Assembly (NCBI GenBank): GCA_944386455.1
Contig: CALXBC010000003.1
Location: forward strand, 29,872 to 93,871
Origin: an uncultured Clostridia bacterium
GTDB taxonomy: Bacteria; Bacillota; Clostridia; Oscillospirales; Ruminococcaceae
Length of the DNA stretch: 64,000 nucleotides
Direction: 5' to 3'
How positions within the stretch are numbered: the stretch's first letter is position 1; every line of letters starts with the position of its first letter. A program made the translations under genes and the position numbers. This document shows, piece by piece, positions 40,709 to 57,746 of this stretch. The notes under the pieces are model-generated. The model worked only from the letters and a program-made list of their open reading frames with translations. It was not told the origin of the DNA and did no database searches.

Positions 40709-40716
40709 GCGCCCGG

Positions 40717-42081
40717 ATGCCGTCCGGCCGTATGGAGCAGTACCGCAGAATCCTGAAGCAGAGCTCGCGTCTGTTTCATGCGGTACAGGCAGTACCTTTG
40801 CCGGAAACAACGGACGAAAACTATACGCCGGCACTGGCAGGCAGTCATGTATTTGGTCCTGCACTCAGCGGATTTATGCTCTGGCTGCTTCGTGAAGCAG
40901 TAAACAGCGGAAAAAAGCGGCTGTATTTTCTGGCACGGGACGGTTATTTCATGTATCAGGCCGCACTGATTTTCTGCGAACGTCTATGCCTGCCGCTGGA
41001 ATGCCGCTATCTGAGCTGCTCGCGCTATTCGCTGCGGGTACCTGTTTATCATCTGGATCACGAGTCTGCACTTGATTATGTCTGCCGGGGCGGAATCGGC
41101 GTTACCCTGCAAAAAATTCTTGCGCGGGCCGGACTGACTGCAGAAGAACAGAAAAAAACGGCAGACTGCCTGCGGCTTTCATGCGGCTTTGACGACGTGC
41201 TCCCTGCCGGGCAGCTGACAGCAATCCGCCGTCTTCTGGCAAATTGCCGTGTATTTCTTGCAGATATGGATCAGCATTCCGGGACCGCGTATCCGTTCCT
41301 CTGCGGTTATCTGCGGCAGGAGGGGCTGCTTGACGGGGTGCCGGATGCATTGGTGGACAGCGGATGGGTCGGTTCGATGCAGAAGACGCTGGACACCGTT
41401 CTGTCCCGGCTGGGACGTACCCAATCGCTGAGCGGGTATTACTGGGGGCTGTACGGTCTGCCGCCGGAAGCTGTTCGCCGCAATTATCACTGGTACGACT
41501 TCGGTCCCGGGAACGGCCTGCTGCGAAAAGCGGCGTTCAATAATTGTTTATTTGAGGCGGTATTTACCGCCCCGCATGGAATGACGGTCGGTTACCGAGA
41601 AGAAAACGGCGTTTATCTTCCCTGCTATGGCGGTATCAGTGAGGAAAGAGTCAAATTTATTGAACTGCTTGGAAGCTATATTTTGGCGTTTATCCGCGTG
41701 TTTGCAGACCAGACGGCTGCCGCCGCACCGTCCCGCAGGGAAATATGGGAAGCGCGGGCGACGGCGGGAAGGCTGCTGGCTATGCTGATGAAGCATCCGT
41801 CCGCACAGGAAGCACAGGTGTTCGGGCAGATCCCTTTTTCGGATGATGTTTTGGAGGGGAAAGAAAATTTTCTGGCGGCGCAGATGACAGAGCAGGAGCT
41901 CATGGAAAATCATCTGTTGTTCCGTCTGTTCCACAGAAAAAGCGTTATCAGGCAAAGCGCGTGGTATGAAGGCAGCGCTGTTCGTGACAGCGCCCGGCCG
42001 CGCCGTCATATCCGTGGATATACGCTGTATCAGTATCTGCTGTATTTGGACAGGCAGCTGCGGTATCGGTTCGGCGGCTGA
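40717..42081 (+). CDS. Uncharacterised protein homologous to the C-terminal two-thirds of the 43723-45732 product (COG5610-associated domain)
   Basis: Shared blocks: LYFLARDGYFMY vs ILFLSRDGCLLL, and VDSGWVGSMQKTLD vs VDIGWAGSGAVMLD. Confidence 0.6.
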   Translation: MPSGRMEQYRRILKQSSRLFHAVQAVPLPETTDENYTPALAGSHVFGPALSGFMLWLLREAVNSGKKRLYFLARDGYFMYQAALIFCERLCLPLECRYLSCSRYSLRVPVYHLDHESALDYVCRGGIGVTLQKILARAGLTAEEQKKTADCLRLSCGFDDVLPAGQLTAIRRLLANCRVFLADMDQHSGTAYPFLCGYLRQEGLLDGVPDALVDSGWVGSMQKTLDTVLSRLGRTQSLSGYYWGLYGLPPEAVRRNYHWYDFGPGNGLLRKAAFNNCLFEAVFTAPHGMTVGYREENGVYLPCYGGISEERVKFIELLGSYILAFIRVFADQTAAAAPSRREIWEARATAGRLLAMLMKHPSAQEAQVFGQIPFSDDVLEGKENFLAAQMTEQELMENHLLFRLFHRKSVIRQSAWYEGSAVRDSARPRRHIRGYTLYQYLLYLDRQLRYRFGG

Positions 42082-42124
42082 TGAAGGCGAAAAAATAAGC
42101 CAAAAGGAAAGGGAGCGGTTTTAT

Positions 42125-42904
42125 TTGGAGCACATTGAAAAACGAAAGCATGGGCACTATGGCTTTGTGATCGCACAGCTGACATCGCGGGAGCTGAAGC
42201 GGAAATACGCGCGGTCCTATCTGGGGGTGGTATGGAGCGTGCTCAACCCTCTGCTTTCCATGGCCGTGCTGTCCCTTATTTTTTCCCGCCTGTTCCGGCG
42301 TTCCATCGACAACTATCCCATTTATTATCTGACGGGGTATATCCTATGGCAGACCTTTACCGGAGCAACGATCGCCGCAATGACCACGCTGGCTGACAAT
42401 AAAATGCTGCTGCTTCGGGTAAAATTTCCCATGGATCTTTTCATTCTGGCAAGAGTCTATACCGCAATGGTGAATCTGGGGTATTCGCTGATCGCCTATG
42501 CGGTGATGCTGGCTGTTTTCCGGGTCCCGCCGCGCTGGACCATGCTGTTTTCCCCGGCAGTGATCCTGTGCCTGTTTTTCTTTGCGCTGGGCGTTTCTTA
42601 TCTGCTGGCGGCCGCCTATGTCTTTTTTGGCGATATCAGGCACCTTTATACGGTATTTCTGACGCTGTGGATGTACTGCTCCGCCGTCTTTTACCCGGTC
42701 GGGCAGCTTCAGGGCTTTATGCGGACTCTGGTTGAGAATAACCCGCTGTTTATTTTTATTGACTGTCTTCGGACAGCCGTCATGCTGGGGCGGCTGCCGG
42801 GAACGGATCGGGTTCTGAAAATGCTTGTCTGGAGTATCGGGATGCTGCTGCTGGGCTTTTGGGTGTTCCGGAAAAACAAAAACAAAATTATGCAGCATAT
42901 ATAA
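42125..42904 (+). CDS. ABC-2 type polysaccharide/teichoic-acid export permease (TagG/Wzm-like)
   Basis: About 259 aa, 6 transmembrane helices. LKRKYARSYLGVVWSVLNPLL is the ABC-2 N-terminal signature. TTG start with AAGGGAG Shine-Dalgarno. Confidence 0.82.
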   Translation: MEHIEKRKHGHYGFVIAQLTSRELKRKYARSYLGVVWSVLNPLLSMAVLSLIFSRLFRRSIDNYPIYYLTGYILWQTFTGATIAAMTTLADNKMLLLRVKFPMDLFILARVYTAMVNLGYSLIAYAVMLAVFRVPPRWTMLFSPAVILCLFFFALGVSYLLAAAYVFFGDIRHLYTVFLTLWMYCSAVFYPVGQLQGFMRTLVENNPLFIFIDCLRTAVMLGRLPGTDRVLKMLVWSIGMLLLGFWVFRKNKNKIMQHI

Positions 42905-42940
42905 ACTGGGATCAGCGGGAAGGGAAGGAACTGCAACGAT

Positions 42941-43699
42941 ATGGAAACACAGGGAAAGACTGCGCAGGCGGAGATCGTGGTTGAAAACGTCACCATGCAG
43001 TTTCGGCGCGCCAAAGACGAGGCGGCGAGTCTGAAGGAAATGCTGATCCGCATGGTGCGGCGGGAGCATGGATATGAAACGTTTCTGGCGCTGGACAACG
43101 TCAGCTTTACCGTGAACCGCGGTGAGGTCGTGGGAATCATCGGGACCAACGGCTCCGGGAAAAGCACGCTTCTGAAGATCATTTCAGGTGCGCTGATACC
43201 TACTGCGGGAAGGGTGCTGGCAGACCGCTCGAAAATTCAGCTGCTGACACTTGGTACAGGCTTCGATCCTGAGCTGACCGGGCGGGAGAATGTTTATCTG
43301 AACGGCGCCATGATCGGGTACGGCAAAAAGGAGATCGACAGCCGCTATGGCGAGATCGTCCGTTTTGCGGAGCTGGATGGCTTTATGGAGGAAAAGGTGC
43401 GCAACTATTCCTCGGGTATGGTATCACGGCTTGGCTTTGCGGTCGCGACTGCGCGTGACGCACCCGAAATTCTGATTCTGGACGAGGTGCTCAGCGTCGG
43501 CGATCTGTTTTTCCGAAAAAAGAGCGAGGCGCGGATCCGGGAGATGATCCACGGCGGATCCACCGTGCTGATCGTTTCCCATACCCCTTCGGTTATCCGT
43601 AGCAACTGCACCAAAGCGGTCTGGATCGAAAAGGGCAGGCTGATCGCCGCAGGAGACCCAAAAACGGTCTGTGACGGCTATGAGAGCATGAGAAAGTAA
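42941..43699 (+). CDS. Polysaccharide/teichoic-acid export ATP-binding protein (TagH/Wzt-like, no C-terminal CBM)
   Basis: GTNGSGKST, YSSGMVSRLGFA, ILILDEVLSVGD. Confidence 0.88.
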   Translation: METQGKTAQAEIVVENVTMQFRRAKDEAASLKEMLIRMVRREHGYETFLALDNVSFTVNRGEVVGIIGTNGSGKSTLLKIISGALIPTAGRVLADRSKIQLLTLGTGFDPELTGRENVYLNGAMIGYGKKEIDSRYGEIVRFAELDGFMEEKVRNYSSGMVSRLGFAVATARDAPEILILDEVLSVGDLFFRKKSEARIREMIHGGSTVLIVSHTPSVIRSNCTKAVWIEKGRLIAAGDPKTVCDGYESMRK

Positions 43700-43722
43700 C
43701 CCGTGAAAAAGGGGAGGATGAT

Positions 43723-45732
43723 ATGAAGGAATGGCTTTACCGTCTGTTGGTCAGCCGCACGCCGCAGATAAAGGAGCGGTATCTGAACCGTCGAAACAGC
43801 GGAACCGGCCGGCTGTCCGGCCTTGCTTATCTTGTCTGGCTGAATTTGCGCTATGGGCTGATACCCGGCCGGCGGCAGGACATGTTTCTGCCGGATACCG
43901 CATTGCGCCTTCCCGGGGAGAGAAGCGAGTCGTCCCGGTCGGCACGGGAAGCCCCGGAGCAGTTTGCCCGCCGGCTGGCCGAGTTTGATATCGTTTCCTT
44001 TGATGTGTTCGATACTCTGCTGTTCCGCCCGTTTTCCGATCCCAGAGATATGTTCGGCCTGATCGGGCTGGAATTGAATTATCCCGGTTTTCAAAAGCTG
44101 CGCATCCAGGCTGAGGAACAGGCAAGACGGAAGAAATGGGAGAGCGGTGAAACGCGGGAGGTCACCCTTGGTGACATCTGGGAAATCATGGAACGGGAAA
44201 CCGGAATCCCGCGGCAAAAAGGAATGGATGCAGAATGGGAATGGGAGCGGCGGTGCTGTTTTGCCAATCCCTATCTGCTGCAGACTGTCAAAGCGCTTTG
44301 CCAAATGGGAAAAACCGTGATTGCGGTCTCCGATATGTACCTTTCCCGAAAACAGATCGAACTGCTTCTGAAAGAGAACGGGTTTCCCCGGCTGACGGAG
44401 CTTTTTGTCTCCTCCGAGTACGGCTGCTCCAAAAGCAGCGGCGGACTGTATGATCTTCTGCGGCAGCGGTATGGAAGAAAAGCACGAATCATCCATATCG
44501 GGGATAACATATATTCAGATGTGAAATCTGCTTCTTCTCACGGCGTCGAAACAGATTGGTATCCCAACGTTAACAGCGTGGGAAAGCCGTTCCGCCCCGG
44601 AGACATGTCCGCCCTGACCGGAAGCATTTACCGCGGGCTGGTCAATGCGCACATTCACTGCGGGTTAATGCAATACTCCCCTGAATATGAATATGGATTC
44701 CTGTACGGCGGCTTGTTTGTGACAGGATACTGCAGATTTATTCACACATATTGTCAATGTTATGGAATCGAAAAAATTTTGTTTTTGTCGCGGGACGGCT
44801 GTCTGCTGCTGCGCGCTTACCGTGCGATGTATCCCGAAGAAGCGCACCGCACCGCATATGCCTGCTGGTCCCGTCTGGCTGCCGTCAAGCTGACGGCGGA
44901 CATTTACAGAAGTGAATATTTTGAGCGTTTTTTATTCCACAGGACAGGCTCGCATATCACTCTGCGGCAGGCGCTGGACGGCATGGAACTGACCGATCTC
45001 CTGCCGAAGCTGTGCCGGGAGCGAAGCCTTGCGCCGGAGACAGTCCTGACGTATAAAACGGCCCGGGTTGTCAAACAATATCTGACAGAGCACTGGCAGG
45101 AGGTACTGTCTCATTACACGGAGCAGCAAAACGCTGCAAAATCCTATTACCAGGAGCTTTTGGACGGCTGCCGGACAGCGGCGGCTGTGGACATCGGCTG
45201 GGCTGGCAGCGGCGCGGTGATGCTTGACTGTGCCGTCAGCCGAATCTGGGGACTGTCCTGCCGCATCACCGGGATTCTGGCAGGCACCTTGTCGGCAAAC
45301 AGTCCTGAGGCAGATGCTGCCTCCCCGCTGCTTTGGGGCGGCAGGCTTGTAAGCTATTTGTTTTCCGAGGCAAATAACCGGGATTTATGGCGGTTTCATG
45401 ACGCAGACAAGAAACATAACCTGTACTGGGAGCTGCTGCTCGGGGCACCGGAGGGAAGTCTCATCGGATTCTATCCGAACCGGAACAACGCACGGGGCTG
45501 GCAGTGCCGCCTGAAAAAAAGCCATGCCGATCCTGCCAAAATCAACCAAATTCATCAGGGCGCCATGGATTTTGTACAACTGTTTCTGGAAACGGAAAAA
45601 AGGCTTGGGTTAACCGTCCCCATCAGCGGACGGGACGCCTATGCGCCGATGGCGGCTCTTTTCGGCAGACATAACCGGACATCCCGCAGAAAACTGGAGG
45701 ATCTTTTAGATGAAGCGCAGATCGTCTGTTAA
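43723..45732 (+). CDS. HAD-superfamily (COG5610-like) protein with large C-terminal uncharacterised domain
   Basis: FDIVSFDVFDTLLFRP (HAD motif I, DxFDT), AVSDMY, HIGDN. The C-terminal half is paralogous to 40717-42081. Confidence 0.7.
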   Translation: MKEWLYRLLVSRTPQIKERYLNRRNSGTGRLSGLAYLVWLNLRYGLIPGRRQDMFLPDTALRLPGERSESSRSAREAPEQFARRLAEFDIVSFDVFDTLLFRPFSDPRDMFGLIGLELNYPGFQKLRIQAEEQARRKKWESGETREVTLGDIWEIMERETGIPRQKGMDAEWEWERRCCFANPYLLQTVKALCQMGKTVIAVSDMYLSRKQIELLLKENGFPRLTELFVSSEYGCSKSSGGLYDLLRQRYGRKARIIHIGDNIYSDVKSASSHGVETDWYPNVNSVGKPFRPGDMSALTGSIYRGLVNAHIHCGLMQYSPEYEYGFLYGGLFVTGYCRFIHTYCQCYGIEKILFLSRDGCLLLRAYRAMYPEEAHRTAYACWSRLAAVKLTADIYRSEYFERFLFHRTGSHITLRQALDGMELTDLLPKLCRERSLAPETVLTYKTARVVKQYLTEHWQEVLSHYTEQQNAAKSYYQELLDGCRTAAAVDIGWAGSGAVMLDCAVSRIWGLSCRITGILAGTLSANSPEADAASPLLWGGRLVSYLFSEANNRDLWRFHDADKKHNLYWELLLGAPEGSLIGFYPNRNNARGWQCRLKKSHADPAKINQIHQGAMDFVQLFLETEKRLGLTVPISGRDAYAPMAALFGRHNRTSRRKLEDLLDEAQIVC

Positions 45733-46690
45733 GCGGCCGATGGTACTGTACCATGCAGTCAGCTCCTATCAGCTGCTGGAAGTCATGCTCCATCGGAAAC
45801 TGGTTCATTCTCAGGAACGGGCGGTTTTGCTTCTGCCCGACTTTATTACGGAAAAGTACCCCTGGTACCGGAAGCTGACTTCCTGTCACTTTTTTGATGA
45901 GGTGTACCTGTTCCCCTATCTGCATATCCCGCATACAAGCGAAGCACAGGTAACGGTTGATACGCTCGATGCCTGCCGTACTGTTCTGCCGTACCCTCTG
46001 ACCGCTTTTCAGGAAGTCTATGTCGCGGGTGCACATTTTTATTTTTCTCTTTGTCTGATTCAGCAGCAGATCCCATTTGTGTTTTTTGAGGACGCCGCCG
46101 GAATGCTGAGCCGTTCAGAAGAGCTTAAAAAAAACCTGTCTGTCAGGTTTCCGCTTCACGCTCAAATCGCGGCAAAATACGGGTTGTTTGACGGAAGCTG
46201 TCCCGCTGTCAGTCAGATCGTTTGTCTGAAAAAAGCGCAAACCAGGGACGTATCAGATCATAAATATCAAAATTTTTCGGTTATGGATGCGCTGGCGGGG
46301 CTTTCCCCAAAAGAGAGGCGGCGTTTCTGCCGGATTTTCCTGAAGCATCCGCTCCATACATCGGCGGATGCAGTGCTGCTGACCCAGCATTTTGCCAATC
46401 TGGGGATTCTGTCAGAGAACGGACAGCGGCAGCTGTATGCATCTCTGCGGGACGGACCGCTGCAGGGCGTCAGGCTGGTTATTAAAAAACATCCCGATGA
46501 CACGCTGGATTATCGTCTGATTTTTCCCGATGCCAGGGTGATCAGACAGGTGTTTCCGTCCGAGCTGCTGCCGTTCGTGTTCCGCAGAAAACCGAAAACG
46601 GTCTACACCTTCAGCTCGACCGGAGCAGAAAGCCTGAGCCCATATTTCTCGGTTGTCCGCCTGGACAGCGGACAGCCGGCAGGAAGGTGA
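45710..46690 (+). CDS. Putative glycosyltransferase with sialyl/Kdo-transferase-style motifs (paralog 1)
   Basis: FVFFEDAAG and VIKKHPDD align with the D/E-D/E-G and HP motifs. The N-terminus VLYHAVSSYQLLEVML parallels that of paralog 2. Confidence 0.45.
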   Translation: MKRRSSVKRPMVLYHAVSSYQLLEVMLHRKLVHSQERAVLLLPDFITEKYPWYRKLTSCHFFDEVYLFPYLHIPHTSEAQVTVDTLDACRTVLPYPLTAFQEVYVAGAHFYFSLCLIQQQIPFVFFEDAAGMLSRSEELKKNLSVRFPLHAQIAAKYGLFDGSCPAVSQIVCLKKAQTRDVSDHKYQNFSVMDALAGLSPKERRRFCRIFLKHPLHTSADAVLLTQHFANLGILSENGQRQLYASLRDGPLQGVRLVIKKHPDDTLDYRLIFPDARVIRQVFPSELLPFVFRRKPKTVYTFSSTGAESLSPYFSVVRLDSGQPAGR

Positions 46691-46694
46691 TTCT

Positions 46695-47804
46695 ATGTCA
46701 GAAAACAGAGCGCTGGTGATCGTCAACTCGGTGTATCAGCTTATCAATGCAGTCCAGATCAAGCGGTCGCTGCTTCATGGCAGACCCGCCGACCTTCTGC
46801 TGACCGACATCCTGCCGGACGCGCGGGATTATCTGCCCCGGCTGGAACAAACCGGCCTGTTTGACCGGGTCATCTTTGCGCTGAGCATGGAGACCAATCA
46901 AAAATATGCGGGCGCCAAAGAGCCGGAGCTCAGCGAATGCTACCACAATACCGCGAATTTTCTCCGCTGGGCGCTGAGCGATGAACTAACGGATTATGCA
47001 GAGATTTATTTTTCCAATTATGACGTGCTGACCAGGATGCTGGCCTGCCGTTTTTATCACCAGCCCTGTGCCTTTATTTGGTATGAGGACGGCTTTTCGA
47101 CCTATGTGATCGACTATCTGCGGGAGGACCGTGCGCCGGTCAACCGCCACCCCGACGGGCGAAAGATCAGGGACAAGGTGCAACGCGTCCTGCTGTACGA
47201 GCCTGCTCTTGCCATGCGGGGGGACAGACTCCCCAATGTAGCCCTGCCGAAGATCGACCGCAGGGACAGCGAACTGCGGGAGCTTTTCAACCATATTTTC
47301 GGCTATCGGGGCAGTGCGCGGCTGCCGCGCTTTATCTTTCTGGAGCAGTCCTTTCGCGCCGAGGGCATTCGTACCAACGATATTGACCTGATGCGGGAGT
47401 GCCGTGAAGCAGCGGGCGGCGATTTCATCGTTAAGCCGCATCCCCGCAACCGGGAGAATCTGCCGCAGGAAATGGGGCTGACCAGAAAGTACCCCGACCA
47501 TATACCGTGGGAATTGTTTCTGCTCAATCTGCCGGAGGATGAAAAACAGCAGCATACCTTGCTGACCGTCTGCTCCAATGCGGCGCTGACCGGCCGTCTG
47601 GTCTTCGGACTGGATATGAACACCGTGATGCTCTACCGTCTGTTTGAAGGAAAGGTGCTCTGGAAGGAGGACGCCACCTTATGGCGGTATCTGGAGCGGT
47701 TTCGGCGGGAGTTTGCAGGACGGAATTATTATGTGCCTCAGACACGGTATGCGTTGAGAAACACACTGATGTTTTTGGGAGGACAAAATGGAAAATCAGA
47801 TTAA
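46695..47804 (+). CDS. Putative glycosyltransferase with sialyl/Kdo-transferase-style motifs (paralog 2)
   Basis: FIWYEDGFSTY (EDG) and FIVKPHPRN (HP). N-terminus LVIVNSVYQLINAVQI. AGGAAGGTG Shine-Dalgarno. Confidence 0.5.
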   Translation: MSENRALVIVNSVYQLINAVQIKRSLLHGRPADLLLTDILPDARDYLPRLEQTGLFDRVIFALSMETNQKYAGAKEPELSECYHNTANFLRWALSDELTDYAEIYFSNYDVLTRMLACRFYHQPCAFIWYEDGFSTYVIDYLREDRAPVNRHPDGRKIRDKVQRVLLYEPALAMRGDRLPNVALPKIDRRDSELRELFNHIFGYRGSARLPRFIFLEQSFRAEGIRTNDIDLMRECREAAGGDFIVKPHPRNRENLPQEMGLTRKYPDHIPWELFLLNLPEDEKQQHTLLTVCSNAALTGRLVFGLDMNTVMLYRLFEGKVLWKEDATLWRYLERFRREFAGRNYYVPQTRYALRNTLMFLGGQNGKSD

Positions 47805-49533
47805 GGTGTCGGTGATTATTCCCGTATATCAGGTGGAAAGCTATCTGGAACGGGCAGTTGATTCCGTTTTGGCGCAGACGCTGGAGGAAAAGGAGATCAT
47901 CCTGGTGGATGACGGAAGCACAGACGCCTCTCCGCAGATCTGCGACTGCTATGCGCAGTCGTATCCCGAGCTCATCCGGGTCATACACAAACCAAACGCA
48001 GGCCTCGGCATGGCGCGCAACAGCGGTGTGGAAGCTGCAAAAGGGAAGTATGTTGCATTCCTGGATTCGGATGATACGGTGGAGACGGAGATGTATGAGC
48101 AGCTGTATCAAAAAGCGGAAGCAGGAAATTATGACATAGTGATGTGCGATGTGAACATTATCTATGTGGAAGAAAACAGACAGTCGCTGTCCAGGTCCTA
48201 TCCATCGGAAGAGATTGACCTGCCCGACTATATCGCGAACGGAAACAATATCACATACAGCGTCAACAAGCTGTTTCGGCGGGAAATCTGGGAAGAAAAC
48301 CGCTATGAAAAAATGCTGTTTGAGGATATCGCACTGATTCCTGCGCTGATGACGCGGTACCGACGGGTGGGATACGTCCAGAAAGCGTTTTACAACTATT
48401 ACCGGCGGCCGAACACCATCTCCACATCATTTACGGGGAGTATGGCGGATATCATCCGCGCGTTCCAGATGTTTCTGGATAACAGCAGCCCGGCATACCG
48501 GGAAGAGGCGGTTTACTGCATCGCCAAACAGCTGTACTGGAACATGACAAAGTCGCGGGTGCTGTTCCAGGCGGATTTTATCACGTTTCTGCAAAAAAAT
48601 GAAAAGGACTTCCGGCTCAATCGCTTTCTGCCAAAGGACCCGCAGACCAAAAAGCTGTTGGACTTTCTGGAGCAGAGAGTCCTGCCGGAACGGTTCATCT
48701 GCCCGCATATCGGACGGGAAATCCCCGCGGCATATTTCGAGCAGCTGCGGGAGCATTTTCCTCACGCAGAGCTTGTCCTTGCGGATGAAAATTTTTTTGC
48801 AGCAGAGCAGCCGCCCGCATCGGTTCGTGCGGCCATGACGGCCGGAAACACCGCCTTTGCCGAGGAATATCTCGCCCTGCGGATCCTCTGCGACCAGGGC
48901 GGGATCGTGCTGATGCCCTGGATGCGGGCGAATTTGAATCTCAAGCGGCTCCGGCTGAATCGTATTTTCTTCGGGTTCCGAGGCGGCGAGGAGCTGGAAA
49001 CCGGATGCTTTGGTGCAGAGAAAAGCCATTACGTTATTCAGGCACTGCTTATGACCTATCAAACGGAAAATCTCTACAATCAGGCGTTCCTGCCTCTCAG
49101 GGAAAGACTGCGGGACTTTTTGATTTTACGGTTCGGGCTGAAGCCGAACGGGAAAAGCCAGCTGCTCAAAAAGGAGATACAGGTCTGTTTGCCGAGTGTC
49201 CTTTCTTATGACATGCAGAATGGGGAAAACTGCTGCAAACGGGCGGATATCCCGGTCCCGGAGGGCTATCAGGCGGTAGAGGACGATGTGCTGAGGCTCT
49301 GGTCCGGCCGGATTCTGGAGAACTGGAATCTCTATAAAAAAGCGTTGGGCAGCGGCAAACCGCTTTCGCCGGATGCGTCCCCGCCTGCTGCACTCGGCGG
49401 AATTACCGAAGGGGAACTGGAAAGACAGCTTCATGAATTGGCAAAGCTTTACGAAAATTCGACCAGCTGGCGGATCACACGCCCGGTTCGGGCGCTGTCC
49501 GATCTCGTCAAAAAAATAGCAAGGAAAGGGTGA
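47788..49533 (+). CDS. Two-domain glycosyltransferase: N-terminal GT2, C-terminal GT32/Caps_synth-like region
   Basis: VSVIIPVYQVESYL, ILVDDGSTD, FLDSDD. The C-terminal AEEYLALRILCDQGGIVLMPW resembles the SDxxRxxxLxxxGG block of GT32-type enzymes but has no following DxD. Confidence 0.75.
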   Translation: MENQIKVSVIIPVYQVESYLERAVDSVLAQTLEEKEIILVDDGSTDASPQICDCYAQSYPELIRVIHKPNAGLGMARNSGVEAAKGKYVAFLDSDDTVETEMYEQLYQKAEAGNYDIVMCDVNIIYVEENRQSLSRSYPSEEIDLPDYIANGNNITYSVNKLFRREIWEENRYEKMLFEDIALIPALMTRYRRVGYVQKAFYNYYRRPNTISTSFTGSMADIIRAFQMFLDNSSPAYREEAVYCIAKQLYWNMTKSRVLFQADFITFLQKNEKDFRLNRFLPKDPQTKKLLDFLEQRVLPERFICPHIGREIPAAYFEQLREHFPHAELVLADENFFAAEQPPASVRAAMTAGNTAFAEEYLALRILCDQGGIVLMPWMRANLNLKRLRLNRIFFGFRGGEELETGCFGAEKSHYVIQALLMTYQTENLYNQAFLPLRERLRDFLILRFGLKPNGKSQLLKKEIQVCLPSVLSYDMQNGENCCKRADIPVPEGYQAVEDDVLRLWSGRILENWNLYKKALGSGKPLSPDASPPAALGGITEGELERQLHELAKLYENSTSWRITRPVRALSDLVKKIARKG

Positions 49534-49538
49534 AAATC

Positions 49539-50282
49539 ATGCGGACAATCGCAGTCATTCCGGCACGGTACGGCTCCAGCAGACTCCGGGGAAAACCCCT
49601 GATGGACATCTGCGGACGGCCGATGCTATGGTGGGTCTATCATCGGGTCAGACAGTCCAGAAGCATTGACGGCGTTTATATCGCGACCGACCATGATGAA
49701 ATCATGCAGACCTGCCGTCAGTACAGCATTCCCTGTATGATGACGGACAAGGAGCACAAAACCAGCACCGAGCGGGTGTATGAGGTGGCAAAATTTTTGC
49801 CTGCGGACATCTATGTCTGTGTCAACGGCGATGAGCCGCTGATTGAGCCGTCTATTGTGGAAAAGGTCGTACCGGAGCGTGTGGAGGGATTTTTTGCCGC
49901 CAATCTGATGACGAAAATATCCAGTCCGGTGGAAACGGTGGATGACACCAACATCAAGGTCGTGACCGACGAAGCGGGAGACGCACTGTATTTTTCCCGC
50001 AGTCCCATCCCGCATCCCAAAGCCAGCATCCGGTTTGATTATTACAAGCATCTGGGCGTGCTGGCCTATTCACCGGAGGCGCTGCGCTTTTTTGCCCGGA
50101 CGCCCAGAGGCAGACTGGAGCAGGTGGAGGACATCAACGAGCTTCGGTTTGTGGAACACGGCAAAAAGCTGCGGATGATTCCGGTGGATGCGGACACCCT
50201 TTCGGTGGATACCCTCAAGGATCTGGATTATGTGCGTCATGTGGTTGCGGAAAAGATAAAGAAAGGGGAGCTGAGATTATGA
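49539..50282 (+). CDS. kdsB: KdsB-type cytidylyltransferase (3-deoxy-manno-octulosonate cytidylyltransferase family)
   Basis: Collinear with E. coli KdsB: AVIPARYGSSRLRGKPL, IATDHDEI, TSTERV, VNGDEPLIEP, ALYFSRSPIP, HLGVLAY, E..ELRF. Confidence 0.85.
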   Translation: MRTIAVIPARYGSSRLRGKPLMDICGRPMLWWVYHRVRQSRSIDGVYIATDHDEIMQTCRQYSIPCMMTDKEHKTSTERVYEVAKFLPADIYVCVNGDEPLIEPSIVEKVVPERVEGFFAANLMTKISSPVETVDDTNIKVVTDEAGDALYFSRSPIPHPKASIRFDYYKHLGVLAYSPEALRFFARTPRGRLEQVEDINELRFVEHGKKLRMIPVDADTLSVDTLKDLDYVRHVVAEKIKKGELRL

Positions 50283-51892
50283 GCCAGCCGCGGATTCAGG
50301 TTCTGGACTGCACGCTGCGGGACGGCGGCTACATCAACGACTGGCGGTTCGGCAGACGGACCATTGCAGCCGTTCTTGACAAGCTGGAGCAGGCGGGCAT
50401 CGACATTATCGAATGCGGGTTTCTGACCCGTATGGTAAAAGAGGACGGCTGCTCCCTGTTTGGCGGACCCGACGAAATCAAGGGATTGCTTCCGAAACGG
50501 GAAAGAACATCAATGATCGTCGCTATGATTGCAATCGGGGAAAAGGAGCTGCATCCCATAGAACTGCCGCCCTGTGACGGCAAAAGCATCAGCGGGATCC
50601 GGCTGACCTTTCACAGGCAGGAGATCAATCAGGCCGTCGAATGGGCAGGCATCATCATGGATAAGGGCTACAAGGTATTTATGCAGCCGGTCGGGACAGC
50701 GTTCTACAGCGACATCGAGCTGCTGGAACTGGTGAAAAAAATGAACGCACTGCGGCCCTATGCCTTTTATATTGTGGACACCCTGGGCAGTATGTACCGC
50801 GGAGATGTTTCCCACCGTTTTTATCTGATTGACAAAAATATGGCACCGGAAATCCGTCTGGGCTTCCACGGGCACAACAACCTTCAGCTTGCCTTTTCCA
50901 ACGCGCAGGTACTGGGGAAAATCCAGACGCCGCGGACGCTGATTCTCGACTCCTCGGTTTATGGCATGGGACGCGGCGCGGGCAATCTGCCGACCGAACT
51001 GATCACCCAGTATATCAACCGCAGCATTGCACCGCGGTATGACGTGACAACGGTCATGGACATCTATGACGGATATATCGCGGCAATCCGCAGAGAATAC
51101 GACTGGGGCTATGCAGTACCTTATCATATTGCAGCCAGCAGCGTCTGCCATCCGAACTATGCTTCCTATCTGCTGAACAAACAGACCCTCACCATGAAGG
51201 ATATCAAAAAAATCATTGAGTCGATCCCGGCGGAGTATCGGGTGTTATATGACCAGAAGCTGATTGAAGAGCTGTATGTCCGGTTCCAGAGCAGAAAAAT
51301 CGACGACAGTGAATCTGTGTTCACACTGTCTCAGATGATGGCGGGGAAAAAGCTGCTGCTTCTGGCTCCGGGGAAAAGTCTCTTGCAGCATCGCGGCACA
51401 GTCCTGTCCCGGATCGAAAAAGAAAATCCGTTTGTTATCACCATTAATTTTGCAGACCCGCTCTACCGTCCAAATGCCTGCTTTATCAGCAACCATAAAC
51501 GGCTGGACACCATCGGTCAGGAACTTGCCGCGTGGAAAGAACTTCCGGTCATCCTGACATCCAACCTGCCGGCCGGGATCAGGGATTGTCTGTATGTTGA
51601 CTATGACAGCTACACCAACGGTGATGAAATGATTTCCGACAATGCGGGACTGATGCTGCTGAGCCTGCTGAAGAAATGCGGTGTGCAGCATGTCATGCTG
51701 GCCGGATTTGACGGCTTCCGCCACAGCTATGGGGAAAATTACTACAGCGAGGATCTGGACTTTGGTGCAGACCAGCGGGAAGCAGAGGAAAAACAGCACA
51801 GAATGAGAAAAAAACTTCAGGAATTTGCGCACACCACTCAGCTGGAGTTTCTGACTCCTTCTGCATATGAGTGGAAAAACACAGCAGAATAA
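50279..51892 (+). CDS. Fusion: N-terminal DRE-TIM (HMGL-like) aldolase domain, C-terminal CstII/DUF115 (MptE/Maf)-like domain
   Basis: IQVLDCTLRDGGYINDW and ...GFHGHNNLQLA... are DRE-TIM metal-binding motifs. In the C-terminal half, LLLLAPGKSL...VITINFA...ACFISNHKR and SDNAGLMLLSLLKKCGVQHVMLAGFDGF resemble the GNGPSL / TsG...GiDfY pattern. Confidence 0.6.
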   Translation: MSQPRIQVLDCTLRDGGYINDWRFGRRTIAAVLDKLEQAGIDIIECGFLTRMVKEDGCSLFGGPDEIKGLLPKRERTSMIVAMIAIGEKELHPIELPPCDGKSISGIRLTFHRQEINQAVEWAGIIMDKGYKVFMQPVGTAFYSDIELLELVKKMNALRPYAFYIVDTLGSMYRGDVSHRFYLIDKNMAPEIRLGFHGHNNLQLAFSNAQVLGKIQTPRTLILDSSVYGMGRGAGNLPTELITQYINRSIAPRYDVTTVMDIYDGYIAAIRREYDWGYAVPYHIAASSVCHPNYASYLLNKQTLTMKDIKKIIESIPAEYRVLYDQKLIEELYVRFQSRKIDDSESVFTLSQMMAGKKLLLLAPGKSLLQHRGTVLSRIEKENPFVITINFADPLYRPNACFISNHKRLDTIGQELAAWKELPVILTSNLPAGIRDCLYVDYDSYTNGDEMISDNAGLMLLSLLKKCGVQHVMLAGFDGFRHSYGENYYSEDLDFGADQREAEEKQHRMRKKLQEFAHTTQLEFLTPSAYEWKNTAE

Positions 51893-51967
51893 TCAGAGAG
51901 AAAGGAACGAACCGATGAACAATGCCATCCCGCCGGCGTGTTTTTCGGATTTCGGAAGGCGAACGAA

Positions 51968-52630
51968 ATGAAGCGGTGCGTTGTATTTGATATGGACGGT
52001 ACGCTGGTCAACTCCTATCCGGGAATATTTGATTCCTATGCATGGACATTTCAGCGTCTGGGAATTCCCTTTTCAGGGGATGCATTTGTCAAAAAAGCCA
52101 TCGGGGCACCTTTGCCATGGGTGTTTGAACACCTGTGCGGGCTGAACGCCTTACAGACTGCGGCAGCGATCAGGTACTACCGCAGTTATTATGCCGAAAA
52201 AGGGAAATGCGGCGTCACCGTTTATGACGGGATCGGCGGCATGCTGAAACGGCTGAAGCACGCGGGCTGTCTGATAGGAACCGCTACCTTGAAAAAAGAA
52301 GTCTTTGCCCGGGAAATACTGGAGCAGTTTCAGCTGTCGTCTCTATTCGATTTGATCTGCGGAACCGACGGGCGTGACAGCTTTACGAAAGCAGGCCTGC
52401 TGCGGCGGTGCATGAATGCCCTGAGCGTCTTGCCGGAGGAAACGGTTCTGGTGGGAGACAGTCTGTTTGACAAAGAAGGCGCAGAGGAAGCAGGCGTGGA
52501 TTTTCTGGCAGTCACCTATGGCTTTGGTTTTCAAACGCCGGAAGAGCAGAAACAGCTGCCTGTGGGAATGACAGCCGCCTCTGCGGAAGAGATTGCCGAT
52601 ATTCTGCTGAAAGGAGAGAAACAGGGATGA
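51968..52630 (+). CDS. HAD-IA phosphatase (phosphoglycolate-phosphatase-like)
   Basis: VVFDMDGTLVNS, GTAT.K and VGDSLFDKEGAEEAG motifs. Confidence 0.8.
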   Translation: MKRCVVFDMDGTLVNSYPGIFDSYAWTFQRLGIPFSGDAFVKKAIGAPLPWVFEHLCGLNALQTAAAIRYYRSYYAEKGKCGVTVYDGIGGMLKRLKHAGCLIGTATLKKEVFAREILEQFQLSSLFDLICGTDGRDSFTKAGLLRRCMNALSVLPEETVLVGDSLFDKEGAEEAGVDFLAVTYGFGFQTPEEQKQLPVGMTAASAEEIADILLKGEKQG

Positions 52631-53925
52631 CAGCACGCAAAAAAGTGATTTTAGGTATTATAGCGGGCGTATTGGTGTTTTTGCTGCTGGCCGCAGCCGC
52701 CGTGGGCGCTTATTATTCCGTCATCCTAAAACGGACGCTGGAACAGGTTGCCGCTCCGCAAAAGCAAAACGTTGTTTTTTCCGTCTATGTCCTGGCTGAT
52801 GACGCCGCAAAGGGGCTGGAGGACACCGCAGCGCTTTCTTACGGCATCAATCGCTCGGAACCGGATCAGGACAGCATGACGCGTGCGCTGGGCGAGCTTG
52901 GCGAAATGCTGGGCAAAGAACTGCATACGGTCGGCTATGATAGTCTGTTTTCCCTCGCGGACGGGCTTCAGCAACAGGAAATTCGTGTCATCCTGCTGAA
53001 TGAGGCGCTTCTGGACAGCCTTGCGGAAACAGAAGGATATGAGTGGACGGCGGAGGGACTTCGAAAGCTGGAATCCGTATCGATCGGGCAGGAAGAACTG
53101 ACAGCAGAGCATACAGAAGGCCAGAGCGGTACGGCTGAGGAATCTGTTCGGCCCCCGTCCGAACTGCCGCAGGGCTTTGTGGTCTATATCAGCGGAATCG
53201 ACCGCTACGGCGGACTGACAGCGCGCTCCCGCAGCGATGTGAATATTCTTGCGGCTGTCAATACGAAAACCAAAAATATGCAGCTTGTTGCAACCCCGCG
53301 GGATTATTATGTGACTTTTTCCCGGGCGAAGGGGCAAAAGGACAAGCTGACCCACGCGGGTATCTATGGGGTAGAAATGTCGGTTGACGCACTGGAACGG
53401 TTATACGGCGTCGAGATCGACTACTGGCTCCGGCTGAATTTTACGGGGTTCGTGGAGATTATTGACGCGCTCGGCGGGGTCGAGATCTATTCAGAGCATA
53501 CTTTTACCGTAAAGAACATCAAAACATATCAGACAGGGATGAATCAGGTCAACGGACTGGAAGCATTGGCCTTTGCCCGGGAGCGGTACAGCTTTGCCAA
53601 CGGAGATTACCAGCGTGCCAAAAACCAGATGGAGGTCATCCGCGCCGTGATCGACAAATGCACCTCACCTGCACTGCTGAAAAATTACCGTTCCGTCATG
53701 GACGGGATTGCCGGCAGCTTTTCCACCAATATGCCCGAAGATCAGATTCTTTCTCTCGTTAGGATGCAGCTGGCATTCGGCGGAGAATGGAAGGTATCCT
53801 CCTATACGGTAAGCGGTACCGGTGCTTCCCGGGAGACCTATTCGATGCCGGGACGGAAGCTTTATGTCATTCTGCCGGACCAGAAATCTGTCAGTCAGGC
53901 AAAGGCGTTGCTGGCCGGCGTATAG
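52627..53925 (+). CDS. LytR-CpsA-Psr (LCP) family glycopolymer-peptidoglycan ligase
   Basis: N-terminal transmembrane helix. RSDVNILAAVNTKTKNMQLVATPRDYYV and HAGIYGVEMSVDALERLYGVEIDYWLRLNFTGFVEIIDALGGVEI. Confidence 0.9.
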   Translation: MTARKKVILGIIAGVLVFLLLAAAAVGAYYSVILKRTLEQVAAPQKQNVVFSVYVLADDAAKGLEDTAALSYGINRSEPDQDSMTRALGELGEMLGKELHTVGYDSLFSLADGLQQQEIRVILLNEALLDSLAETEGYEWTAEGLRKLESVSIGQEELTAEHTEGQSGTAEESVRPPSELPQGFVVYISGIDRYGGLTARSRSDVNILAAVNTKTKNMQLVATPRDYYVTFSRAKGQKDKLTHAGIYGVEMSVDALERLYGVEIDYWLRLNFTGFVEIIDALGGVEIYSEHTFTVKNIKTYQTGMNQVNGLEALAFARERYSFANGDYQRAKNQMEVIRAVIDKCTSPALLKNYRSVMDGIAGSFSTNMPEDQILSLVRMQLAFGGEWKVSSYTVSGTGASRETYSMPGRKLYVILPDQKSVSQAKALLAGV

Positions 53926-57638: not shown

Positions 57639-57746
57639 GCTTATGTTTCCTTTCTTCGGTTCATGAAGCCGGAGAGAAAATTTTTCTCTCCGGCTTGCGG
57701 CTGCCAGGCTGAGAAGCCAGACACTTTCAGCAGGATGCGCACCTCT

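Follow-up and report, generated by a model that had tools for sequence, protein, structure and literature searches.

A conserved clostridial gene cassette predicted to build a ribofuranose–ulosonic acid wall polysaccharide with an aldolase-made acid

The 64,000-nucleotide stretch of DNA analysed here (the window, from an uncultured Clostridia bacterium) carries a KdsB-type cytidylyltransferase gene among genes for the export and anchoring of a wall polymer, and raises the questions of which acid is activated, how that acid is made, and what kind of polymer receives it. Enzymes of the CTP_transf_3 family activate 2-ulosonic acids, and the original prediction proposed that an aldolase, a phosphatase and the KdsB-like enzyme provide a Kdo-like acid without KdsA. 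With modest confidence, we lean towards reading these genes as a cassette for an ABC-exported, LCP-anchored acidic wall polysaccharide of ribofuranose and a CMP-activated 3-deoxy-2-ulosonic acid, the acid being supplied by an aldolase route. If so, gut Clostridia would use an uncharacterised aldolase route to a Kdo-like acid instead of the textbook KdsA pathway. Literature searches found no published description of the cassette and no polysaccharide structure from any species that bears it.

The genes form an operon of ~15 kb on the + strand (39.7–53.9 kb) that is one conserved cassette. All lie on the strand and at the positions originally given, as judged from the ORF list and from genes called in public assemblies, where products identical to those of the window's cassette are present (including the 369-aa transferase described below). 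The cassette was found in at least 161 species-level genomes, almost all of them Clostridia of the Ruminococcaceae, Oscillospiraceae or Acutalibacter type, and ~75 of 84 loci from other species share its gene order, so that the arrangement is not due to chance. Its bearers include the isolates Bianquea renquensis NSJ-32, Solibaculum intestinale and Merdimmobilis hominis An559 and the complete genome AP031437.1. The KdsB-type and aldolase genes are adjacent in 80/84 loci; four loci lack a KdsB-type match, and in three of these a PseF-like CTP_transf_3 gene lies directly upstream of the aldolase gene, while in the other the sequence breaks off immediately 5' of the aldolase gene. The aldolase fusion always lies beside a CTP_transf_3 enzyme: in divergent variants (46–49% identical) this enzyme is PseF-like and not KdsB-like (64–73 bits to PseF in the variant loci, with a cut-off of 206), and a CTP_transf_3 neighbour is also kept in a locus (L085) whose other surroundings are quite different. 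In the aldolase–kdsB–HAD triad put forward originally, the first two genes are the constant pair and the HAD phosphatase gene is an optional third member, lying downstream of the aldolase gene in 56/84 loci and absent from roughly one cassette in three.

The 247-aa product of 49539–50282 is a CTP:3-deoxy-2-ulosonate cytidylyltransferase of the KdsB type whose sugar pocket is altered (Pfam CTP_transf_3, E = 6e-49). Among solved structures it is closest to E. coli KpsU (1GQ9; 170 bits, E = 7e-49), and it scores 36 bits against PseF. Of the NCBIfam KdsB models, it clears the subfamily cut-offs of NF009905 (256 vs 255 bits) and NF003952 (245 vs 193 bits) and falls short of the equivalog cut-offs of TIGR00466 (152.5 vs 155.2) and NF003948 (164 vs 281). 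The canonical motif columns R13, K22, D101, E102, R157, H174, R206 and D227 vary little or not at all among 81 cassette enzymes, and in comparison with a canonical reference of just four gammaproteobacterial sequences the motif QGDEP has become NGDEP (81/81), GIYAY has become GVLAY (80/81) and LEQLR has become INELR (80–81/81). In E. coli KdsB, Q98 and Y185 hold the C5-OH of Kdo (PMC12199768), whereas Asn and Leu occupy these positions in 80–81 of the 81 cassette enzymes. Because these ligands are replaced throughout the family, the activated sugar is predicted to be Kdo-like, as first proposed, but is probably not Kdo itself.

The aldolase gene (50279–51892) overlaps the stop codon of the cytidylyltransferase gene by 4 nt (ATGA). 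The DRE-TIM domain noted originally is present, but the 537-aa product is a two-domain fusion, composed of the DRE-TIM (HMGL-like) domain (50279–51190; Pfam HMGL-like, E = 7e-18), a helical linker (51191–51292), and an MptE/DUF115-like Rossmann-type C-terminal domain (51293–51892). In the PDB it matches 3DXI best, followed by DmpG-type 4-hydroxy-2-oxovalerate aldolases, and Foldseek similarly returns 3DXI followed by DmpG, HsaF and AmnG; scores against the curated NCBIfam 4-hydroxy-2-oxovalerate aldolase models are 80 (cut-off 286) and 91 (cut-off 229). Alignment with DmpG (1NVM) equates R17/D18 with R14/D15 and the metal ligands H200/H202 with H197/H199 of the window protein, whereas the catalytic H21 is replaced by Tyr18, 3DXI likewise having Tyr. 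DmpG/BphI-type enzymes catalyse reversible aldol reactions of pyruvate with aldehydes, and the domain is predicted to be a metal-dependent pyruvate aldolase of the DmpG type, although we know of no enzyme with a known substrate in its subfamily. The full-length model is mediocre (pLDDT 69). The C-terminal domain modelled alone (pLDDT 83, pTM 0.82) matches SteA (9HMZ; E = 1e-3, probability 1.0) and the M. jannaschii HPPK/MptE (8SBU; E = 2.4e-3, probability 0.99) in Foldseek searches, and PF01973 is the sole recurrent second Pfam family in aldolase relatives (2/18 and 8/53 members, best E = 0.0035). This domain is present in every cassette aldolase, with the polar residues N390, R408, S428, N429, D454, N455 and D478 invariant or at least 90% conserved among homologues 33–60% identical. 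It is a putative nucleotide binder that could phosphorylate the aldose or the product, or might alternatively be a regulatory or CMP-sugar-binding module.

The next gene encodes an HAD-IA (phosphoglycolate-phosphatase-like) phosphatase (51968–52630; Pfam HAD_2, E = 4e-28) that carries a DMDGT motif and scores far below the cut-offs of the NCBIfam PGP-type models. In at least one genome (P0120, locus L004) it is fused to the aldolase within a minimal four-gene cassette, where no ribosyltransferase-like gene is found among the called genes and tblastn gives no match to either ribosyltransferase of the window; a second locus (L037), with an identical minimal set of genes, retains the HAD gene directly downstream of the aldolase gene. 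Because of the fusion, the phosphatase is judged to be linked in function to the aldolase. Pfam scans of the remaining sizeable ORFs in the window found no DAHP_synth_1 (KdsA), SIS (KdsD), KdsC-type or NeuB match, which agrees with the absence of KdsA and KdsD reported originally, and a KdsA query validated against PDB 1D9E found no homologue in 1.6 Mb of related loci around 87 cassettes. These results and the conserved gene pair favour a KdsA-independent route; that about one third of the cassettes lack the HAD gene counts against the proposal.

Two putative transferases encoded at 45710–46690 and 46695–47804 (the latter 369 aa) are, as first described, paralogues (hhalign probability 95%, E = 2e-8, 275 columns) with conserved acidic and H-P motifs. 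Both are classed as polysialyltransferase-like (GT38-type) on near-threshold scores to Pfam A-2_8-polyST (gathering score 23.3), which are 22.3 bits (E = 1e-4) for paralogue 1, also matching GT52 (E = 9e-4), and 25.4 bits for paralogue 2. Across 75 sequences of paralogue 1, conservation of E127-D128-A-A-G131 and H261-P262 is 95% or higher; in paralogue 2, E131-D132-G133 and H249-P250 do not vary among 30 aligned orthologues, and their conservation over 76 sequences is likewise at least 95%. Many paralogue 2 orthologues carry PF07388 and the NCBI name 'polysialyltransferase family glycosyltransferase', and a search of solved structures with the paralogue 2 profile gave no match. Both proteins look like CMP-ulosonic-acid transferases, the role first suggested for them. 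They are followed by a GT2 glycosyltransferase (47788–49533; Pfam Glycos_transf_2, E = 5e-42, residues 8–169) with a C-terminal half of ~290 aa for which a separate search found no Pfam match; it is kept in 77/84 loci, in each directly upstream of the cytidylyltransferase gene.

Two large proteins left unassigned in the original prediction can now be described as homologues of PRPP-dependent ribofuranosyltransferases. In the 669-aa protein (43723–45732), residues 170–496 match the 'ribofuranosyl transferase' of PDB 7SHG (phmmer, E = 1.3e-7) and residues 90–365 match Bcs3 383–690 (E = 3.4e-5); the protein also matches NCBIfam HAD-IA TIGR01549 (30 bits, cut-off 23), carries an 'SRDG' motif and is kept in 74/84 loci (tblastn). 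It is predicted to be a two-module enzyme with an N-terminal CrpP-like HAD phosphoribosyl phosphatase (~residues 90–285) and a C-terminal CriT-like PRPP-dependent transferase. The 454-aa protein (40717–42081, in an ORF that opens at 40486) has no Pfam match and resembles the C-terminal half of the 669-aa family (hhalign probability 97%, E = 4e-11, 272 columns); phmmer matches it to Bcs3 residues 653–719 (E = 1.3e-3), a segment containing the PRPP-binding loop S678-R679-D680, and the 454-aa protein has 'ARDG'. It is a putative CriT-like PRPP-dependent ribofuranosyl-5-phosphate transferase module without a phosphatase domain. PRPP-dependent Ribf transfer with subsequent HAD dephosphorylation is a known reaction sequence (PMC10299916, PMC12887879). 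The teichoic-acid-like context first proposed stands as regards the exporter and ligase, but the search revealed no enzyme of the TagB/TagF type, and two ribofuranosyltransferase homologues are present, which point to a Ribf–ulosonic-acid polysaccharide and not a teichoic acid. The proposed glycan would resemble the E. coli K13 capsule.

The exporter consists of a TagG/Wzm-like ABC-2 type permease (ORF limits 41966–42904; Pfam ABC2_membrane, E = 1e-15), the start of which is probably later than that of the ORF, orthologues being ~258 aa, and a TagH/Wzt-like ATPase without an extra C-terminal domain (42941–43699; Pfam ABC_tran, E = 1e-23); they are kept in 65/84 and 69/84 loci respectively (tblastn). 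The last gene of the operon encodes an LCP (LytR-CpsA-Psr) glycopolymer-to-peptidoglycan ligase (52627–53925; Pfam LytR_cpsA_psr, E = 3e-38; NCBIfam TIGR00350, 100 bits, cut-off 62), which adjoins the cassette in 28/84 loci. In the pathway that we propose, the DRE-TIM domain would condense pyruvate with an aldose, which is probably phosphorylated, to give a 3-deoxy-2-ulosonic acid (phosphate), as the chemistry of its family suggests. Synteny and the gene fusion suggest that the HAD enzyme, or a housekeeping phosphatase where its gene is absent, would strip the phosphate, after which the KdsB-type enzyme, on the strength of its homology, would form the CMP-sugar. The two GT38-like paralogues would transfer the acid and probably invert its configuration, the 669-aa and 454-aa proteins would add ribofuranose from PRPP, and the GT2 enzymes could prime the chain or contribute additional sugars, before export by the TagGH-like transporter and coupling to peptidoglycan by the LCP enzyme.

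We know of no Kdo pathway in monoderm Oscillospirales, and it seems improbable that the product is ordinary Kdo from a canonical KdsD–KdsA–KdsC set encoded elsewhere, with the aldolase fusion engaged in acid salvage or degradation or in making another polymer component. All or almost all of the 81 cassette enzymes lack both C5-OH ligands, both KdsB equivalog cut-offs are missed, the aldolase gene adjoins and in the window overlaps the cytidylyltransferase gene, and no KdsA homologue was found in the 1.6 Mb around 87 cassettes; nevertheless, the enzyme is close to KpsU and passes two KdsB subfamily cut-offs, and some Firmicutes, such as Bacillus coahuilensis, do carry Kdo islands that contain kdsA, kdsC and kdsD (PMC4744853). 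A nonulosonic (sialic-acid-like) product, for which we see a small but real chance, would be formed from pyruvate and an N-acetylhexosamine (possibly a 6-phosphate from the MptE-like domain), dephosphorylated by a NANP-like HAD enzyme, and assembled by the GT38-like transferases into a polysialic-acid-like chain. This would mirror the kinase, synthase, HAD phosphatase and CMP-synthetase logic of the vertebrate sialic acid pathway and suits the polysialyltransferase matches; PseF, to which the cytidylyltransferase of divergent cassettes is nearest, is a nonulosonic-acid enzyme, and the smaller or hydrophobic residues in place of Q98 and Y185 could leave space for an acetamido group at C5. However, the cytidylyltransferase of most cassettes is clearly of the KdsB and not the NeuA/PseF type, the PseF matches of the variant loci are well under the cut-off, and a NeuC-type epimerase, an aminotransferase and an acetyltransferase are all missing from the conserved cassette.

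Since PRPP-dependent ribosylation requires a 5-phosphatase (PMC10299916) and the 454-aa protein is a transferase module only, the stand-alone HAD enzyme might be its CrpP-equivalent phosphoribosyl phosphatase, with the aldolase using an unphosphorylated aldose, and the dispensability of the HAD gene in many cassettes would fit. We doubt this strongly, as the presence of the HAD gene does not follow that of the 454-aa protein across loci, the aldolase–HAD fusion and the HAD gene just 3' of the aldolase gene occur in minimal cassettes, the former without any CriT-like gene, and both transferases could rely on the HAD domain that the 669-aa protein contains. There is only a slight chance that a CMP-activated non-sugar or phosphonate-type acid is made, the DRE-TIM domain then being a Claisen-type synthase (citramalate, homocitrate or phosphonomethylmalate synthase-like). 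Such synthases belong to the DRE-TIM superfamily and give weak NCBIfam matches (E = 1e-7 to 1e-9), and phosphonate tailoring commonly uses nucleotidyl activation (PMC6697681), but the nearest relatives in sequence and fold are DmpG-type aldolases, the window yielded neither a PEP mutase gene nor any other phosphonate gene, and the similarity to KpsU together with the conserved Arg157 and His174 would lead us to expect a cyclic 2-ulosonic acid.

At its left end, the densely packed run of + strand genes opens with a GT4 glycosyltransferase gene (38671–39921; Pfam Glycos_transf_1, E = 2e-33), which is outside the conserved cassette; it has a tblastn match in 1/84 related loci, most of which end too early upstream. 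The GT2 glycosyltransferase ORF that follows (ORF limits 39728–40708) has a counterpart at the 5' edge of 30/84 loci (tblastn), most loci being cut there. Its Pfam Glycos_transf_2 match (E = 3.5e-27) begins at residue 55, and the true start of the gene is probably near 39881–39899.

Thirteen + strand genes, overlapping or tightly spaced, occupy positions 38671-53925, and the wall-polysaccharide cassette lies within this run. Pfam and NCBIfam searches identify, in order, a GT4 glycosyltransferase (38671-39921), a GT2 glycosyltransferase (39728-40708), a 454-aa protein with no family match (40717-42081), an ABC-2 permease (41966-42904; ABC2_membrane), an ABC ATPase (42941-43699; ABC_tran), a 669-aa protein with a weak HAD-IA signal alone (43723-45732), two putative transferases (paralogue 1, 45710-46690, and paralogue 2, 46695-47804) with near-threshold matches to the alpha-2,8-polysialyltransferase family, a 581-residue GT2 protein (GT2-581; 47788-49533; Glycos_transf_2), a KdsB-type cytidylyltransferase (49539-50282; CTP_transf_3), an aldolase fusion (50279-51892; HMGL-like), a HAD phosphatase (51968-52630; HAD_2) and an LCP ligase (52627-53925; LytR_cpsA_psr). 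By exact-sequence look-up, NCBI, ENA and Logan assemblies contain gene calls for the 669-, 326-, 369-, 581-, 247- (cytidylyltransferase), 537- (aldolase), 220- (HAD) and 432-aa (LCP protein) products. The cytidylyltransferase stop and the aldolase start overlap by 4 nt, and this overlap, the ORF positions and the family assignments are all as stated in the original prediction. A promoter and terminator scan of 38-56 kb does not resolve the operon boundaries, the counts being near shuffled expectation.

The 537-aa aldolase fusion has thousands of homologues, the best 120 of which are full-length, 65-72% identical, and derived from Clostridia MAGs and isolates. In a scan of one genome per species, relatives are present in at least 161 genomes, and the best 80 of these are nearly all from Ruminococcaceae, Oscillospiraceae or Acutalibacter-type Clostridia, including the isolates Bianquea renquensis, Solibaculum intestinale and Merdimmobilis hominis. 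Searching with the window proteins (tblastn) reveals one fixed order in 84 loci: GT2, 454-aa protein, permease, ATPase, 669-aa protein, paralogue 1, paralogue 2, GT2-581, cytidylyltransferase and aldolase. The cytidylyltransferase adjoins the aldolase in 80 of the 84; the ATPase, the 669-aa protein, both paralogues and GT2-581 are each found in 69-77, the permease in 65, the 454-aa protein in 58, the HAD in 56 and the LCP gene in 28, all of these being lower bounds as contig ends cut many loci. The C-terminal half of GT2-581 (residues ~290-581) has no Pfam match, yet the protein is conserved in 77 of the 84. An aldolase-kdsB-HAD triad had been proposed, and the aldolase-cytidylyltransferase pair bears this out, but the HAD does not: it is absent from about one third of otherwise complete cassettes (L007, L023, L032, L034, L039, L045, L051-L054, L057-L063, L065, L068-L071, L074-L077 and L081), in which the aldolase is directly followed by the LCP gene or an unrelated gene. 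The MAG CAJFTS01 ('Coassembly_mag_118') contains two full cassettes on separate contigs (L020 and L033), with aldolases 70% and 67% identical to that in the window; either this genome encodes two paralogous polymers or the bin is mixed.

Several loci depart from this arrangement. The minimal cassette, L004, is reduced to four genes, which encode paralogue 2, GT2-581, the cytidylyltransferase and a protein that joins aldolase and HAD (the 751-aa P0120), and L037 has the same set by tblastn. In three Lachnospiraceae-type loci (L079, L082 and L083) with 46-49% identity, the aldolase is still flanked by a CTP_transf_3 enzyme, a HAD and polysialyltransferase-like proteins; the CTP_transf_3 enzyme, at ~9.3-10.0 kb within the locus, is a short PseF-like protein (215-222 aa) in place of the KdsB type, and some of the polysialyltransferase-like proteins are longer or carry a GT8 fusion. 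In two of the three (L079 and L082), the aldolase also has homologues of the 669-aa protein nearby. In L085 (469-5050), from another lineage, the KdsB-like and aldolase-fusion pair sits beside an O-acylation pair (MBOAT and a DHHW/AlgX-type protein), and the transporter cassette is absent. Because the cytidylyltransferase and aldolase are kept together in the minimal, divergent and MBOAT-linked variants, this pair is the invariant core.

The cytidylyltransferase is closely related to CMP-Kdo synthetases: it is a strong match to CTP_transf_3 (E 6e-49), and its best PDB match is to E. coli KpsU/K-CKS (1GQ9; 170 bits). It passes the NCBIfam KdsB subfamily models NF009905 (256 vs a cut-off of 255) and NF003952 (245 vs 193), but does not reach the KdsB equivalog cut-offs (TIGR00466, 152.5 vs 155.2; NF003948, 164 vs 281). 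When the window enzyme and 80 cassette orthologues are aligned with four solved KdsB/KpsU sequences, the KdsB motif columns R13, K22, D101, E102, R157, H174, R206 and D227, which take in the P-loop Arg and Lys, the GDEP Asp and a C-terminal Asp, are invariant or nearly so (n=81), and there are four family-specific swaps: QGDEP to NGDEP (81/81), GIYAY to GVLAY (80/81), LEQLR to INELR (80-81/81) and SGTER to TSTER (78/81). The KdsB ligands of the Kdo C5 hydroxyl, Gln98 and Tyr185, are Asn in 81/81 and Leu in 80/81 of the cassette enzymes, respectively. Modelling on the structure of E. coli KdsB with CTP and 2-deoxy-Kdo has the C5 hydroxyl of Kdo held by Q98 and Y185, and the enzyme used 5-epi-Kdo less well and 5-deoxy-Kdo not at all in that study (PMC12199768). 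Published work that we examined documents roles only for Q98 and Y185, and we found no Kdo contacts described for residues of the LEQLR motif. Since the C5-OH ligands are the residues replaced, we infer a cyclic 2-ulosonic acid substrate unlike Kdo at least at C5, as judged against four comparators that are all gammaproteobacterial, and the activated sugar is probably not Kdo.

The predicted synthase is the aldolase fusion, whose source annotation is the generic "aldolase catalytic domain-containing protein". Residues 1 to ~300 align with DmpG-type 4-hydroxy-2-oxovalerate aldolases (Pfam HMGL-like, E 7e-18), and alignment to 1NVM shows that the DRE-TIM Arg-Asp pair and the His-x-His metal site are kept. 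These features, the DRE-TIM fold and the expected pyruvate-enolate chemistry are shared with the class II aldolases DmpG, BphI and HsaF. Unlike these, however, the window protein has no acylating aldehyde dehydrogenase neighbour and no communication domain (no DmpG_comm match), carries a C-terminal MptE/DUF115-like domain, and lies in a biosynthetic rather than a catabolic context; it also falls far below the level of the curated 4-hydroxy-2-oxovalerate aldolases (TIGR03217, 80 vs 286). The DmpG catalytic His21 is replaced by Tyr18, and Tyr is also present in the nearest structure, 3DXI, described as the "N-terminal domain of a putative aldolase" of Bacteroides vulgatus (BVU_2661); only that domain was solved, and a literature search on BVU_2661/3DXI returned only unrelated papers. 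It had been considered that the aldolase might instead cluster with enzymes of phosphonate or citramalate chemistry. We rule this out as the main reading, because its nearest sequence and fold relatives are DmpG-type aldolases and not synthases; Pfam also identifies no PEP mutase or other phosphonate gene among the scanned sizeable ORFs of the 64-kb window.

The C-terminal 200 residues of the window aldolase have no Pfam match (DUF115/MptE included), and a fold search with the full-length model gives TIM-barrel matches alone, with none to this domain. A domain-only AlphaFold model (pLDDT 83, pTM 0.82) has as its best Foldseek matches SteA and the archaeal pyrophosphokinase MptE (8SBU), with probabilities of 0.99-1.0 and TM-scores of 0.44-0.50 (for 8SBU, E 2.4e-3, probability 0.99 and TM-score 0.44). 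Among diverse homologues, PF01973 (MptE-like, formerly DUF115/Maf) is the sole recurrent second family (8/53, best E 0.0035). The domain, which the aldolase always carries, resembles MptE (an archaeal 6-hydroxymethyl-dihydropterin pyrophosphokinase) in fold and PF01973, the family of MptE and the Maf flagellin nonulosonic-acid transferases, weakly in sequence. These matches are remote (TM-score 0.44-0.50, E ~0.004), and here the domain is fused to an aldolase, an architecture of which we know no characterised example. An exhaustive profile search finds it in 1,129 clusters, and in full-length proteins among the 150 matches listed it is located at ~335-530 of ~530-aa aldolase fusions. Residues N390, R408, S428, N429, D454, N455 and D478 are invariant or at least 90% conserved; conservation of these polar residues at 33-60% identity suggests a ligand site and not a mere scaffold, and the domain could serve as a kinase, bind a CMP-sugar or have a regulatory role. 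One variant aldolase fusion, the 672-aa P0340 (L086 10001-19157, and L087), has no cytidylyltransferase neighbour, and lies beside a TPP-enzyme/NDP-hexose modification cluster, a branched-sugar, yersiniose-like gene set.

Paralogues 1 and 2 are distantly homologous to each other (BLASTP E 1e-4; hhalign probability 95% over 275 columns). Against the PF07388 gathering score of 23.3, paralogue 2 scores 25.4 bits and paralogue 1 falls just below it at 22.3 bits; many orthologues carry PF07388, the source annotation is the generic "polysialyltransferase family glycosyltransferase", and a paralogue 2 profile matches no solved structure among PDB sequences. The D/E-D/E-G and H-P motifs are those described for bacterial sialyltransferases. 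The original prediction recognised them in these proteins and noted the H-P motif also in beta-Kdo transferases; the motif assignment is upheld, with E-D-G and H-P invariant in paralogue 2, and E-D-A-A-G and H-P at least 95% conserved in paralogue 1, but the beta-Kdo transferase resemblance does not extend to QxxxD, as neither QSFRAE (paralogue 2) nor QHFAN (paralogue 1), where the aligned Gln lies, provides an Asp at +4. A QxxxD nucleophile together with H-P unites the retaining Kdo transferases of GT99, GT107 and GT140 (PMC12887879), and membership of these families is ruled out, H-P being present and QxxxD missing. Because QxxxD is absent, an inverting, GT38-like mechanism is the better guess.

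The 669-aa and 454-aa proteins, which had initially been left as uninterpreted, can now be related to ribofuranosyltransferases. The 669-aa protein matches the ribofuranosyltransferase 7SHG (E 1.3e-7) and the Hib capsule polymerase Bcs3 (E 3.4e-5), the latter across the CrpP HAD phosphoribosyl phosphatase module and the start of the CriT ribofuranosyl-5-phosphate transferase module, and its 'SRDG' motif corresponds to the S-R-D PRPP loop. The 454-aa protein aligns by hhalign with the C-terminal half of the 669-aa family (probability 97%), indicating homology, and matches Bcs3 (E 1.3e-3) over the PRPP-binding loop S678-R679-D680, which reads 'ARDG' here. As homologues of these enzymes, both are predicted to be PRPP-dependent ribofuranosyltransferases, which would widen the range of this only lately described class of enzymes to include a conserved wall-polymer cassette of Gram-positive bacteria. 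CriT/CrpP-type enzymes move ribofuranose-5-phosphate from PRPP to a glycan, and the HAD module then strips the phosphate (PMC10299916; PMC12887879). The presence of CriT/CrpP homologues in the cassette leads us to predict that the polymer contains ribofuranose besides the ulosonic acid. A Ribf-Kdo composition is best known from the E. coli K13, K20 and K23 capsules, which are also ABC-transporter dependent (PMC12887879).

The proposed absence of KdsA and KdsD from the window is confirmed: Pfam scans of its sizeable ORFs reveal no KdsA (DAHP_synth_1), KdsD (SIS/CBS), KdsC (HAD-IIIA) or NeuB, and tblastn with E. coli KdsA (a query validated against PDB 1D9E) gives no match at E up to 1 in the window and 87 loci (1.6 Mb). 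The setting had also been called teichoic-acid-like. A TagGH-type exporter and LCP ligase are indeed present (ABC2_membrane, ABC_tran and LytR_cpsA_psr), but no scanned window ORF has a Pfam match to TagB/TagF (Glyphos_transf) or to CDP-glycerol or CDP-ribitol synthesis, and with no polyol-phosphate enzymes the description therefore holds for export and anchoring only.

We propose that the aldolase would join pyruvate and an aldose, or aldose phosphate, to form a 3-deoxy-2-ulosonate (or its phosphate), that the HAD, or presumably a housekeeping phosphatase where its gene is absent, would remove the phosphate, and that activation with CMP, transfer by the GT38-like enzymes, ribosylation from PRPP, export by the ABC transporter and ligation by the LCP enzyme would follow, these steps being taken from family chemistry. 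A phosphatase gene is likewise dispensable in E. coli, in the form of kdsC. The overall scheme, in which an ulosonic acid made by an aldolase route is built into a ribofuranose-containing wall polymer, draws on the genes present and their conservation, on their domain homologies, on the changed pocket residues and on the nearby absence of a KdsA-type enzyme, and its chemistry is predicted; we regard it as somewhat the likelier account. A more specific version is unlikely to be right in full: a route, needing neither KdsA nor KdsD, to an octulosonic acid not previously known in nature, in which the aldolase joins pyruvate and ribose-5-phosphate to give the C5 epimer of Kdo-8-phosphate, followed by the HAD, a re-tooled KdsB (Q98N, Y185L) and inverting GT38-like polymerisation with ribofuranose. 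The choice of ribose-5-phosphate as the aldehyde is speculative; the same pentose-phosphate pool would feed the adjoining PRPP-dependent ribosyltransferases, and this choice would explain the missing isomerase, the phosphatase, and the replacement of exactly the C5-OH ligands.

Comparison with characterised systems places the broader aldolase scheme among several partial parallels. With the canonical Gram-negative CMP-Kdo pathway (KdsD, KdsA, KdsC and KdsB) it shares a homologous CTP_transf_3 last step, an implied phosphatase step and a CMP-activated 3-deoxy-2-ulosonic acid as end product, but the cassette has no arabinose-5-P isomerase, its phosphatase is HAD-IA (PGP-like) where KdsC is HAD-IIIA, the C5-OH ligands of KdsB are replaced, and the C-C bond would come from a metal-dependent DRE-TIM pyruvate aldolase rather than the PEP-dependent, DAHP-synthase-fold KdsA. 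The sole Firmicute Kdo island that we found in the literature has canonical kdsA, kdsC and kdsD. The sialic acid pathways of vertebrates and bacteria, with GT38 polysialyltransferases, follow the same logic of synthase, HAD-IA phosphatase (cf. NANP), CMP-synthetase and GT38-type transferase with D/E-D/E-G and H-P motifs, whereas the cassette has a KdsB-type cytidylyltransferase and neither a NeuB/NANS-type PEP-dependent synthase nor amino-sugar tailoring genes. Teichulosonic acids are wall polymers of Actinobacteria that contain Kdn or other ulosonic acids; these and wall teichoic acid resemble the predicted product as anionic monoderm wall glycopolymers, charged by ulosonic acid, with TagGH-like export and LCP ligation, but the phylum, the predicted acid and the biosynthetic route differ, and polyol-phosphate enzymes (TagB/TagF, TarIJ) are lacking here. 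KrkA of the E. coli K13/K20/K23 capsules combines a GT140 Kdo transferase and a PRPP-dependent ribosyltransferase in one protein (PMC12887879). KrkA together with Hib Bcs3 (PMC10299916) shares with the proposed system an ABC-transporter-dependent acidic polymer, CMP-ulosonic-acid transfer with H-P in the transferases, PRPP-dependent ribofuranosyl-5-P transfer, and HAD dephosphorylation. The cassette differs from these in its Gram-positive host and LCP anchoring (in place of a lipid-linked poly-Kdo primer and Kps export), in having GT38-like transferases with E-D-G and without QxxxD, in encoding the modules as separate proteins, and in having dedicated non-canonical synthesis genes for its acid.

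Synthesis of a nucleotide-activated ulosonic acid that feeds an ABC-exported glycopolymer is known in kind; what appears to be new is the kind of synthase, the domain fused to it, the changes in the cytidylyltransferase pocket and the occurrence in Gram-positive hosts. Literature searches on the aldolase-cytidylyltransferase pair, Kdo in Clostridia and Gram-positive Ribf-Kdo polymers gave no description of the cassette or of a function for the aldolase subfamily. Known routes to ulosonic acids depend either on a KdsA/NeuB-type synthase that uses PEP or on a class I lyase, and if the scheme is correct a metal-dependent DRE-TIM pyruvate aldolase would provide a third route, and over 1,100 protein clusters that carry no annotation beyond "aldolase catalytic domain-containing protein" would gain a function. 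Kdo-like acids are normally characteristic of Gram-negative envelopes; one would then be a regular part of a wall polymer conserved across at least 160 species of gut Clostridia, an abundant group here including Ruminococcaceae, Oscillospiraceae and Acutalibacter relatives, and the polymer could plausibly serve as an immune ligand, as a phage receptor and as a marker of the taxon. PRPP-dependent ribofuranosylation machinery would likewise reach Gram-positive wall polymers, and the authors of the Hib study point out that polymerases of complex Gram-positive wall polymers have yet to be identified (PMC10299916).

Divergent from the operon start, on the - strand at 36956-38414, are a ROK-family sugar kinase and an MGS-like domain protein, a position to which the related loci do not extend. 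Further upstream (8615-20182) are other envelope-related genes, including a GT4 and an acyltransferase (8615-10684), a polysaccharide deacetylase (12727-13800, - strand) and a PGA_cap/CapA-like protein (18731-20182). Directly past the operon, on the - strand at 56469-60530, are a phage-capsid-like protein (Pfam Phage_capsid_3/4), a coiled-coil ORF and a 604-aa LPXTG-anchored protein.
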